Of a DNA stretch of 30,249 bases, positions 13,289 through 30,249 are shown in pieces. The translations under genes and the position numbers were made by a program. Positions within the stretch are counted from its first letter, which is position 1, and every line of letters begins with the position of its first letter. The notes beneath the pieces were generated by a model, which made no database searches, was not told the DNA's origin, and saw only the letters and a list, made by a program, of their open reading frames with translations. Source of the stretch: a virus (Duplodnaviria > Caudoviricetes); the IMG/VR virus record IMGVR_UViG_3300016476_000331, positions 1-30,249 of that record; one strand, written 5' to 3'.

Positions 13289-13918
13289 ATGATGGGACGC
13301 TTCCGTGATTTAACTGGCGAACGATTTGGCAGGTTGCTTGTTTTGCAGCGCGACGGTTGCAACAAGCACGGCCAAGTTAAATGGTGGTGCCGCTGCGACT
13401 GCGGTACGGAAAAGCACGTTCTTGGCATGTGCTTGTCTCGCGGAGAAACGCAATCGTGTGGGTGCTTGCACAAAGAAAAAACTTCTGAGGCAAGCAAAAT
13501 TCACGGCATGACTCAAACGCAAATTTATGGACTTTGGCGCGGCATGATTCAGCGTTGCACCGACATAAACCACCCGCGTTATTCGGATTACGGCGGCAGG
13601 GGAATAAACGTTTGCCCAGCGTGGCAGACGTTTGAAGGCTTTTATGCCGCGATGGGTGACAGGCCAACTGGAATGTCGCTTGAAAGAAAAGACGTAAATG
13701 GCGATTACTGCCCAGATAATGTGGTGTGGGCAAGCGCCAAAGCGCAAGCAAACAATCGACGCAGCAATGTCGTTCTTGAACACGCAGGAAAGAGGCAAAC
13801 CATGCAGCAATGGTGCGATGAACTTGAACTAAAGATTGGCACCGTGTGGGCGCGAATCAATCGCGGCTGGGCCGCCTCCCGCGCTTTGACTCAGGAGGTG
13901 CGTCATGTTCAGTGCTAA
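13289..13918 (+). CDS. Homing endonuclease-like protein (HNH-related)
   Basis: DLTGERFGRL, WWCRCDCG, SCGC, YGGRGI, SLERKDVNGDYCPDNVVWA...QANNRR motifs. More AT-rich than its flanks. Confidence 0.85.
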   Translation: MMGRFRDLTGERFGRLLVLQRDGCNKHGQVKWWCRCDCGTEKHVLGMCLSRGETQSCGCLHKEKTSEASKIHGMTQTQIYGLWRGMIQRCTDINHPRYSDYGGRGINVCPAWQTFEGFYAAMGDRPTGMSLERKDVNGDYCPDNVVWASAKAQANNRRSNVVLEHAGKRQTMQQWCDELELKIGTVWARINRGWAASRALTQEVRHVQC

Positions 13919-17652: not shown

Positions 17653-18179
17653 GGCTGTCGGATCAGGGCGCGGCCCTGATGCACCGCTACGAGGGGTGCC
17701 GGGACCGTCCCTACCTGTGCCCGGCCCACATGTGGACCATCGGCTACGGCCACGTCCTGTACCAAGACCAGCTGCGGCTGCCGATGGCCAGGACGCCCGA
17801 GACGCGCACGCTGCCCAAGATCCGCAAGGAGTACCCGCTGCGGCCCGAGCATTTCCGCGTCTGGGGCAAGGAGGAGATTGATGCGCTATTCCAGGCTGAT
17901 GTCGCTTCTTTTGAGCGCGGTGTTCTACGACTTGCTCCCGGCTTGGCTGGCCATCAAGGCGCTTTTGACGCTTGCGTCTCTTTCGCGTTTAATGCCGGGC
18001 TAGGCAACTTCCAGCGCTCCCAGATCCGCATGAAGGTGAACCGGGGCGACTGGCAGGGCGCGGCCGATGCATTTATGCAGTGGACCAAAGGCGGGGGCAG
18101 GGTGCTGCCCGGCCTGGTGGCCAGGCGCAAAGCAGAGCGCCAGCTTTTCTTGTCAAGCGCTCAAGAAACTGTGCCATAA
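17649..18179 (+). CDS. Endolysin, GH24 phage lysozyme
   Basis: GTG start at 17649. EGCRDRPYLCPAHMWTIGYGH, FDACVSFAFNAG and LPGLVARRKAE motifs. Confidence 0.93.
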   Translation: MRLSDQGAALMHRYEGCRDRPYLCPAHMWTIGYGHVLYQDQLRLPMARTPETRTLPKIRKEYPLRPEHFRVWGKEEIDALFQADVASFERGVLRLAPGLAGHQGAFDACVSFAFNAGLGNFQRSQIRMKVNRGDWQGAADAFMQWTKGGGRVLPGLVARRKAERQLFLSSAQETVP

Positions 18180-18188
18180 ATGTGCCGC
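18170..18188 (+). repeat. Left pair of integrase arm-type direct repeats
   Basis: TGTGCCAT (18170) and TGTGCCGC (18181), 11-bp period. Confidence 0.65.
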
Positions 18189-18223
18189 GCACCGTGACGA
18201 TTGCAGTTGCCATTGCAAACCTT

Positions 18224-18247
18224 GGCCCGTTAATTCGGGCCTTTTTT
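18224..18247 (+). terminator. Rho-independent terminator ending the late operon
   Basis: GGCCCG-TTAATT-CGGGCC followed by T6. Confidence 0.85.
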
Positions 18248-18257
18248 GTATCCTTTA

Positions 18258-18269
18258 GGATTGTGATTC
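18258..18269 (+). other. Candidate attP core (copy of tRNA-His anticodon loop)
   Basis: GGATTGTGATTC is identical to 18394-18405 in the tRNA and is centred between the two arm-repeat pairs. Confidence 0.65.
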
Positions 18270-18330
18270 TGGTGAGTTTTTCTCCTAAGCCCTTGTCACT
18301 GTTGAGTTTTTGTAGGCGTAGAATCGGATT

Positions 18331-18349
18331 TGTGCCATTTTTGTGACAC
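18331..18349 (+). repeat. Right pair of integrase arm-type direct repeats
   Basis: TGTGCCAT (18331) and TGTGACAC (18342), 11-bp period, same orientation as the left pair. Confidence 0.65.
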
Positions 18350-18364
18350 AAACAAGGTTTCAGT

Positions 18365-18441
18365 GGTGGCTGTAGCTCAGTTGGTAGAGCCCTGGATTGT
18401 GATTCCAGCCGTCGTGGGTTCGAGTCCCATCAGCCACCCCA
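18365..18441 (+). tRNA. tRNA-His (GTG), complete with G-1 and encoded CCA
   Basis: GGTGGCTGTAGCTCAGTTGGTAGAGC-CCTGGA-TTGTGAT-TCCAG-CCGTC-GTGGG-TTCGAGT-CCCAT-CAGCCAC-CCCA folds as a cloverleaf and is close to proteobacterial tRNA-His. Confidence 0.97.
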
Positions 18442-18446
18442 TTTCT

Positions 18447-19403
18447 TCACAGCCCGACCCTTTCCGCTGCCGCGGCCAGGTGCTCGGGCGAGAGGTGGGC
18501 ATAACGCTGCACCATCTCATGCGAGTGCCATCCCCCCAGCTCCTGCAGCACTGACAATGGCGTCCCGGCCATCGCGTGCCAGCTTGCCCAGGTGTGGCGC
18601 AGGTCGTGGAATCTGAAGCCAGGCACGCCAGCGCGCTTGCAAGCCGCCTCCCAGGTGTTGGCCCACACCCGCGTCATATCGCCCCATACGCGGCCTGTGC
18701 GGGGCTCTGGTAGCGATGCCAACAGCTCCCTGGCCTGACTGTTCAATGGCACCACAATGCGATGCCCAGCTTTGGCCTCGTCGGCCTCCACAACCGCCAC
18801 CCCACGCTCCAAGTCCACCTTCTCCCAAGTCAGGCCAAAAACATTCGATCTTCTCAACCCGGTGAGCAAAGCGAAACGGACTGGCATCCGATACTTTTCC
18901 GGGAGATTTGCGATCAAAACCTCAGCTTGCTCGCGTGACAGAAATGCGACACGACGCTTGGGCTCTGCCTCGGACTTGAGGACGGGGGCGCGGTCCAGCC
19001 AATCCCAATCGCGCTCGGCAGAACGCAACATGGCCCGCACCAGAGCGCGGTACCGGTTCCTGGTGCTTCCGGTCACGTCCTGGGGAAGTGCCTCCTCGAT
19101 GTCGTCGCGGGTGATGTCGGCAAGTTGCTTGGCCCCCAGCTTGGGCAGGAAATAGTTGATCTTGTCCTGATCCTCGCTGATTGACTTCTTATGGCCGCGC
19201 TCTGTGAGCCAGCGCGCACAGGCGTCCTTGAAGGTCTTCTTGGGGCGAGCCTTGAGAACCTTGCCCTGCCACAGCTCGGCCCTGCGAATGTCGTACAGGT
19301 TCTGCGCTTGCTTTTTGTCGTTGGTCTTGAGTGATTCCCGGATGCGAACGCCATTGATTTGAACGTCCATCCAGTACACGTCGCCGCGAAGTTTGATAGC
19401 CAT
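18447..19403 (-). CDS. int: Tyrosine recombinase (phage integrase)
   Basis: TGLRRSNV (R), EAKAG (K), FHDLRHTWAS (HxxR), LGGW (W), RYAH (Y). ATG 19403 follows SD AAAAGGA. Confidence 0.95.
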   Translation of the reverse strand: MAIKLRGDVYWMDVQINGVRIRESLKTNDKKQAQNLYDIRRAELWQGKVLKARPKKTFKDACARWLTERGHKKSISEDQDKINYFLPKLGAKQLADITRDDIEEALPQDVTGSTRNRYRALVRAMLRSAERDWDWLDRAPVLKSEAEPKRRVAFLSREQAEVLIANLPEKYRMPVRFALLTGLRRSNVFGLTWEKVDLERGVAVVEADEAKAGHRIVVPLNSQARELLASLPEPRTGRVWGDMTRVWANTWEAACKRAGVPGFRFHDLRHTWASWHAMAGTPLSVLQELGGWHSHEMVQRYAHLSPEHLAAAAERVGL

Positions 19404-25263: not shown

Positions 25264-25845
25264 TCACGACGGTTTGATCCACAGCACGGGGGAGGCCCAC
25301 GCGATCTGCACGTCGGTAATTGTTTCGTGACTGGGCCACAGGATCAGGTTCTGGCTTTCGCGCCTGTAGCCTTTCCTGATCAAGCCCATCAAATGCTTCC
25401 CGTCTTTGGTGGCGCAGACACACATGTTGTCAATATGATTGCCTGGGTCGCCTTGAGCAGGACTCACAAATAGCAGCCATCCATCCTTAATGCTGGCGTG
25501 CGTTCTTACCTGGACTGCATAGGCTCCAACAGGGCAGTCACCAGGCCCAATGACAATGTCGTGCGTGCCGTTGGGCATCGCAATGATGTTGCCATATGAG
25601 TCCATGTGCGCCGCAATTGGCACTTTGCGTACGTCCTCGGTAATATCTATTCCGGCTGCGCGCATGACCTCAAGGATCGGTACGCCAAGAATCATCGAAA
25701 TTTGATGAGCTTCGTGTGGCGTCATCTTGCGTTTTCCTCGCAACATAAGCGACACGGCTGCCGCATCAAGTTCCAGCAACTTCGCCAGCCCTCGTTGCGA
25801 AATATTTTTGTCAGCCAATCTGTCTTTGAACCACAAAGTATCCAT
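25264..25845 (-). CDS. cI: CI-like repressor (XRE HTH plus degenerate S24-like C-terminal domain)
   Basis: ISQRGLAKLLELDAAAVSLMLRGKR HTH. Divergent from the cro-like gene; AT-rich. Confidence 0.8.
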   Translation of the reverse strand: MDTLWFKDRLADKNISQRGLAKLLELDAAAVSLMLRGKRKMTPHEAHQISMILGVPILEVMRAAGIDITEDVRKVPIAAHMDSYGNIIAMPNGTHDIVIGPGDCPVGAYAVQVRTHASIKDGWLLFVSPAQGDPGNHIDNMCVCATKDGKHLMGLIRKGYRRESQNLILWPSHETITDVQIAWASPVLWIKPS

Positions 25846-29691: not shown

Positions 29692-30249
29692 ATGGAAGTG
29701 AAACAGCAACTCGATGAGGTCGGGCAGCAGCTCCAGCAGGCCGTGCTGCAGGCTGCCATGCCCGCGGACGACGAGCCTTTCAACGTGGACGAGTGGCGCA
29801 AGGAGGCCCTGGCGCGCAAGAACGGCGCGTCTGGACAGGCAGACAGTGGCGACGCAAAAAATGCGGCCGAAATGCGGGAACAGCCGCCGAGCCCGATCAA
29901 CGGGGCGCGGCTGCCGGCGGGGCGGCCGAAGGGCGTGCAGAACAAGGTCACGCGCACGATCCGCGAGGCCGTCGAGAAGGCGGCCCGCGACTGCCACCCT
30001 GACGGCCTGGCCGGCTGGCTGGTGGAGCGCGCCCAGGGCAGCCTGGGGGACCGGCAGATCTTCGCGCAGATGGTCAACAAGGCCATGCCGCTGCAGGTGC
30101 AGGCGCAGGTCGGCGGTGGCGTTCAGATCCAGCTGAGCTGGCTTGGCCAGCGCCAGATTGGCACAACCGTGGCACAACAGCCTGAGCAGCGCACGCAAGT
30201 CCTTGATCTGCAAGCAGAAAGCGACGGCACCTATCGGATTATTGATCCG
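29692..30249 (+). CDS. terS: Terminase small subunit, truncated by the window end (not in ORF track)
   Basis: Open from ATG 29692 to the end. GRPKGVQNKVTRTIREAVEKA motif is typical of TerS-like proteins; position at the start of the late genes. Confidence 0.75.
   Translation, partial: MEVKQQLDEVGQQLQQAVLQAAMPADDEPFNVDEWRKEALARKNGASGQADSGDAKNAAEMREQPPSPINGARLPAGRPKGVQNKVTRTIREAVEKAARDCHPDGLAGWLVERAQGSLGDRQIFAQMVNKAMPLQVQAQVGGGVQIQLSWLGQRQIGTTVAQQPEQRTQVLDLQAESDGTYRIIDP

Follow-up and report, generated by a model that had tools for sequence, protein, structure and literature searches.

Destroy-and-replace integration at tRNA genes has already been published (PMC10865867; PMC11476347). tRNA-dependent lysogeny is proven in mycobacteriophages, and the phages described with it are Fionnbharth (K4), Cain (K6), cluster L, Gaia (X) and Gordonia CQ2/DL (PMC10865867). 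The same account leaves open the relation of this strategy to canonical integration and its extent beyond Actinobacteria, and none of the phages in the paper's Table 2 rebuilds the tRNA while also carrying a copy. Prophages of Sinorhizobium meliloti AK21 and RU11/001, similar to vB_MloP_Lo5R7ANS, break and replace tRNA-Leu (PMC11476347).

The locus described here lies in a linear virus record that is 84% complete, analysed as a window of 30,249 nucleotides. Its attP combines a short core with a full tRNA-His located outside the right arm, and we consider it highly probable that crossover in the anticodon loop splits what is likely the single host tRNA-His gene without repairing it, with the phage tRNA serving as the replacement. 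The locus resembles the actinobacteriophage systems in its tyrosine integrase, pairs of arm-type sites, lack of a 3′ half, divergent tRNA of the same isotype and canonical close relatives, and its core is similarly short (8-17 bp over the anticodon loop in actinobacteriophages; PMC10865867). It differs in targeting tRNA-His in a probably betaproteobacterial host, as judged here from tRNA sequence. Further, its tRNA sits directly outside the right arm without an evident promoter, whereas that of Fionnbharth lies in gene 37 and has its own promoter, a comparison based on the text of PMC10865867. The window's clade also contains a state with both a tRNA half and a full tRNA, which is absent from Table 2 of that paper. 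The Sinorhizobium prophages share a proteobacterial setting, a host tRNA gene broken in its centre and a divergent same-isotype copy, but concern tRNA-Leu(UAG) in Alphaproteobacteria and were seen as prophages (PMC11476347). P22/APSE/HP1-like site A integration resembles the window in integrase family (about 40% identity), loop crossover and an int gene ending at attP, but its canonical attP carries a contiguous 3′ fragment that the window lacks (PMC4383910). While the strategy itself is not new and the mechanism is very likely right for this locus, the added value is a three-state series, a strict pairing of short core and tRNA and a chimeric host gene. A literature search, with most subscription journals outside it, found neither capture of a host promoter at attL nor an intermediate with both forms described in any paper.

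Anatomy of the attachment site

Profile matches identify capsid, tail, endolysin, tyrosine integrase and CI-like repressor genes in the window. Two HNH or endonuclease VII-like genes lie amid the structural genes (25-639 and 13289-13918). The attP region is bounded by the endolysin, the last late gene (17661..18179, plus strand; PF00959, E 5e-34; phrog_7), whose stop overlaps the first left arm site, and by the gene int encoding the 318 aa tyrosine integrase (18447..19403, minus strand; PF00589). Integrase residues R184, K211, H265, R268, W292 and Y301 are invariant, their roles being assigned from established knowledge. The CI-like repressor (25264..25845, minus strand; phrog_4, E 2e-9) supports a temperate life style.

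Re-reading of the sequence found all parts of attP at the coordinates given by the earlier note. Two pairs of putative Int arm-type sites, recognized by sequence and fixed spacing and each with repeats 11 nt apart, flank the core on both sides: TGTGCCA/TGTGCCG on the left (18170..18187, sites at 18170 and 18181) and TGTGCCA/TGTGACA on the right (18331..18348, sites at 18331 and 18342), both on the plus strand. The pair pattern occurs three times in the window against 0.00 expected. The third occurrence, an arm-like TGTGCCA pair on the minus strand (30159-30176), lies close to the window end, with an IHF-like site (30196-30208) about 20 nt away. A terminator scan located an intrinsic-terminator-like hairpin followed by a T-run at 18224..18247 (stem 18224-18241, plus strand), the putative end of late transcription; it has a counterpart in the window's subgroup and in canonical forms, and none is evident at the corresponding position in subgroups L012 and L104.

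The 12-mer GGATTGTGATTC at 18258-18269 is identical to 18394-18405 inside the phage tRNA-His and occurs twice in the window against 0.01 expected. It had been equated with the anticodon loop region of the tRNA; this identity holds, but the 12-mer reflects only the match to the phage's own tRNA, and what stays invariant is the 7-nt loop TTGTGAT (18261..18267, plus strand), the predicted 7-bp overlap. The common core (18259..18273, plus strand) comprises 15 bp shared with the CCAGA/TCTGG tRNA-His allele, a common Comamonadaceae-type form, and not with the phage copy; it was delimited by allele comparison, and a metagenome contig diverges at 18273. This short core is all that attP has in common with the host tRNA gene, the T arm and 3′ end being absent. 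IHF-like sites were read by eye against a consensus. A degenerate one on the minus strand (18286..18298), at +25 from the loop, matches 7/9 positions; the site at +25 matches 9/9 in L012 and L104, 8/9 in L004 and L116 and fewer than seven in L002 and L003, and none was found there in L193. The claim that no terminator separates core and tRNA needs qualification, as one weak terminator-like hit with three G-C pairs is present (18315-18336), while shuffled sequences give 2.0 such hits per region.

The complete phage tRNA-His(GTG) occupies 18365..18441 on the plus strand (tRNA 18366-18441, G-1 at 18365), as established by tRNA search, fold and comparison. It folds as a cloverleaf and carries G-1, C73 and CCA, the established histidine identity marks. 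As the earlier note had it, this tRNA lies outside both arm pairs with the int stop 5 nt past its end. No terminator is present in the intervening 18442-18446, and transcription from a host promoter could therefore enter int antisense in a prophage. The anticodon stem is CTGGA/TCCAG, unlike the targeted host alleles, and this stem, G-1 and CCA are found in all 38 full phage tRNAs of the integrase-selected loci described below. Within the candidate host family, the stem occurs in only 2/401 genomes, and a stricter version of it was found in 17/301 genomes of the class; its rarity in the family indicates that the spare tRNA is foreign to the likely host. The CTGGA/TCCAG gene of G141 sits in a Pro-Arg-His operon and was rejected as unrelated. 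The spare tRNA diverges exactly at the positions of the integrase core sites. Core and phage tRNA do differ in their flanks, as had been argued, but it is the core's right flank that copies the host stem and the phage tRNA that deviates. The altered stem fits avoidance of self-targeting, and shared ancestry accounts for it equally well.

Three attP states among integrase relatives

From IMG/VR and metagenome contigs, loci were selected by integrase similarity only, at 74.5% identity or above and with the end of int included; less similar or truncated loci were set aside. This gave 46 loci, 29 of them distinct, since many represent the same contig twice. TTGTGAT is present between two arm groups in 46/46, with variable flanks. 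Three attP states can be distinguished. Type A, the canonical form (8/46 loci, six distinct), has the tRNA 3′ half after the loop and no full tRNA. Type B (13/46, six distinct) has the 3′ half after the loop and a full tRNA-His starting 126 nt past it. Type C, to which the window belongs (25/46, 17 distinct), has only WCYGG after the loop and the full tRNA at 103-113 nt. The contiguous 3′ fragment missing from the window is thus present in 21/46 close relatives, and a core-only attP without a full tRNA was found in 0/46 integrase-selected loci.

The first left arm site lies 90-93 nt ahead of the loop in nearly all relatives where it was matched; for L005/L112 and L009/L199, only the inner left sites matched. 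The right arm is found at +91/92 in types A and B and at +69 to +71 in type C, placing the type C sites 21-22 bp closer to the core, or roughly two turns of the helix. The spacer left of the loop averages 38% identity among 13 type C clusters while arm distances are kept; conservation of the core in this comparison is by construction and is not counted as evidence. Two variations in layout were observed: in L207, whose His attP is canonical, the left arm sites lie only 34-57 nt from the loop, and ten loci (L104, L105, L109, L193, L198, L203, L018, L118, L120, L128) carry 250-450 nt of extra DNA, often with a small gene, between attP/tRNA and the int stop, a cargo slot.

A second search of viral loci used the pattern arm, core, arm without any tRNA letters. 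It returned 42 loci, 38 of which are real attP sites. Each of these is followed at 102-113 nt by a full tRNA-His, and 35 have an integrase within the locus. The remaining four read as chance hits, with neither an integrase match nor an arm pair. As the 38 are related, they amount to roughly a dozen lineages. This covariation of short core and full tRNA, complete in both sets (25/25 and 38/38 loci), supports the destroy-and-replace integration that the earlier note had read from the window, a strategy already published for other phages.

Relatives at 55-74% integrase identity have a Cys or Ser loop and 3′ half in the same slot, and His, Cys and Ser targets all begin at the loop, the sole invariant part. 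Because the 3′ half of canonical relatives starts in this slot, the isolated loop corresponds in position to the canonical core and is its homologue. Crossover at the isolated core, and specifically in the 7-nt loop at 18261-18267, is likely on this basis, and a contig from run X4, discussed below, diverges at the core end. Where a full tRNA adjoins an integrase gene, it is usually the mark of attL or the source of a 3′ half (PMC4383910), and the window might on that precedent integrate canonically with the full copy as its core, leaving the upstream 12-mer incidental. We consider this very improbable: the isolated loop is what the two arm pairs enclose, with no pair past the tRNA, which ends 5 nt from int; canonical sisters use the loop slot without possessing a full tRNA; and every attP core in the clade has host-type flanks that the phage stem does not match.

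More distant loci show further arrangements. L121, L122, L129, L130 and L131, with integrases at 57-61% and forming a clade at 100/100, have an attP in which the arm sites are inverted and a tRNA-Ser-like gene is represented by its 5′ part. Core-only attP with full tRNA-His also occurs with a 48% integrase (L268) and, in L256, L273 and L285, with an unrelated PF00589 integrase; in these three, the loop lies 42 nt ahead of the tRNA between two IHF-like sites. Among the cultured-phage matches listed, no integrase exceeded about 41% identity, with none at 60% or above, and no DNA match extended beyond the tRNA.

Likely host, junctions and expression of the putative replacement tRNA

The attP retains only the anticodon loop and has a complete spare tRNA-His adjoining it, which suggests that the host's sole tRNA-His is likely split and then replaced. 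In the proposed mechanism, the tyrosine integrase would cross over in the loop at 18261-18267 and split, without repair, what is likely the only tRNA-His gene of the probable Comamonadaceae-type host. The resulting attL would run from the host promoter through the host 5′ portion, in which the anticodon stem-loop is rebuilt but the T arm and 3′ end are missing, and some 98 nt of phage arm to the intact phage tRNA, while attR would contain the left arm, terminator, core and orphan host 3′ half. The phage tRNA would then take over from the broken host tRNA-His, and the lysogen may come to depend on it.

The host is probably Comamonadaceae-type, judging from the tRNA sequences. The 3′ halves in types A and B copy the CAGGA/TCCTG and CCAGA/TCTGG host alleles, and these two stems account for 148/150 tRNA-His matches listed. 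In a Hydrogenophaga bin (Comamonadaceae), a 51% integrase accompanies a His attP of the canonical form (L029). According to the match table, which includes the unpublished genome G150 as one entry that carries no conclusion by itself, the tRNA-His pattern was matched in 361/401 genomes of the candidate family, once in 348 and twice in 13. Two host-type tRNA-His genes lie 213 bp apart at G193:C1:2453156-2453416. If the real host belonged to the 13/361 genomes with a second copy, some of which may be binning artefacts, the phage tRNA would be useful and not required; this appears improbable given that a short core never occurs without a tRNA (0/25 and 0/38 loci).

Prophage junctions were searched for in IMG/VR, in 401 genomes of the order (0/401) and in seven sequencing runs, and no attL with a split host tRNA was found. 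No integrase closer than about 50% was found in the bacterial genomes searched; with generic motifs, a search covering 34/64 parts returned only relatives of 35-51%, and matches of E 1e-70 or better occurred in 3/401 genomes at 41-48% identity, none of them close. Among 23 integrase loci inspected for prophage context, the close ones show phage-type context. None of 21 loci with a left arm and 3′ half is an attR of the window's clade or has the window's left flank. One 38% integrase relative (L184) is found as an integrated element in the predicted orientation; the tRNA-His that precedes it is rebuilt and follows a ppiD-like gene. The inspection of prophage ends called for by the earlier note thus yielded an integrated relative at tRNA-His and one ambiguous attR-like contig, and no attL. 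This 157-nt contig from run X4 equals 18132-18273 with 0 differences, followed by 15 letters of a host-type T arm. It fits the predicted attR and would equally fit a type A or B sister phage. A type B sister is somewhat favoured, since no window-like right arm was found in run X4 and a short contig there joins CCCA to the int end; missing right-arm coverage there proves nothing by itself. Under either origin, the contig marks 18259-18273 as a site continuous with the host 3′ half.

The failure to find clade prophages in the searched genomes and IMG/VR, together with an unbroken attP in runs X1, X2, X3 and X5, could also mean that the core is a decaying relic with integration rare or absent, the tRNA serving lytic growth through translation or defence against anticodon nucleases. 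Such a relic is hard to reconcile with a loop, arm spacing and intact integrase that are kept although the spacer drifts to 38% identity, with the repressor gene, and with canonical relatives that manage without a tRNA. Moreover, the phage anticodon loop is identical to that of the host and so offers no loop-based escape from nucleases. We therefore rate this reading as improbable and retain integration with replacement of the host tRNA.

How the phage tRNA would be expressed is less certain. A scan restricted to the sigma-70 consensus found no promoter-like match in the spacer between core and tRNA of the window or of 17/17 distinct type C loci, and candidate host tRNA-His genes have, by eye, a -10-like box just ahead of G-1. 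Since the phage tRNA has no recognisable promoter in its retained piece, read-through from the host tRNA promoter is the reading towards which we lean, although the weak terminator-like hit at 18315-18336 speaks against it. The distance is greater than the roughly 100 bp past the host promoter first supposed: in the modelled attL, phage G-1 follows host G-1 by about 136 nt. In the modelled transcript, the phage acceptor stem forms with a pair probability of at least 0.96 and the anticodon and T stems with about 0.65, and no hybrid acceptor stem arises. The same destroy-and-replace integration with a promoter of the tRNA's own in the spacer, and no capture of the host promoter, is a less likely possibility. 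It has a precedent in the Fionnbharth tRNA (PMC10865867) and could escape a sigma-70 scan, but the lack of a promoter-like match in the 17 spacers and the window, the -10-like boxes of the candidate host genes and the fixed place and orientation of the tRNA, 103-113 nt past the core in all core-only loci, argue against it.

Probable origin of the layout and a chimeric host gene

Outgroup integrases are mostly canonical, the exceptions being L268 and the Ser group with 5′ halves. Within the His clade, the tree shows an A/B group at 100/100; it also has several C groups, and two type A rows fall among these. Type C requires 3-4 changes on this tree, although a single origin is not rejected (AU p 0.21). 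The near-identical integrases of L011 (type A) and L008 (type B) imply rapid gain or loss of the tRNA. As the probable origin of the layout, a canonical attP would first have acquired the tRNA and later lost the 3′ half, its right arm becoming shorter by two helical turns; type B falls in a separate integrase clade, which makes it only a possible direct ancestor of type C. Gain of a tRNA followed by loss of the half is one of the routes listed in PMC10865867.

The tRNA-His gene of genome G284 (L215:10015-10090) is a sole copy at its native locus with no prophage beside it. G284 as a lysogen was ruled out, the genome having neither an integrase match nor a split tRNA. Its two congeners share one identical tRNA-His allele, from which G284 differs at nine sites (positions 25-60). 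Compared with the phage alleles of L003 and L012, the gene differs only at acceptor pair 7:66, where the genus form is kept. It is thus chimeric, with a phage-type interior at 9/9 differing sites and a host acceptor pair. Conversion of the host gene by a phage tRNA would be the simplest reading of this one genome. The same interior is found in bacterial genes of G641 and G508, and the G284 lineage could instead be a donor of the phage tRNA.

Tentatively, the clade may show a path from repair to replacement, on which a promoterless tRNA is active only through the host promoter and hidden from the integrase by its altered stem, and on which a permanent swap as in G284 rewrites the host tRNA-His and may close attB to the phage's own family. 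The clade provides all three attP states, including the half-way one, with near-identical integrases. Mapping of prophage ends by the tRNA 3′ repeat will miss or misplace prophages of this kind, and the chimeric gene of G284 suggests that a vertically inherited host tRNA gene can take up sequence from a phage tRNA.
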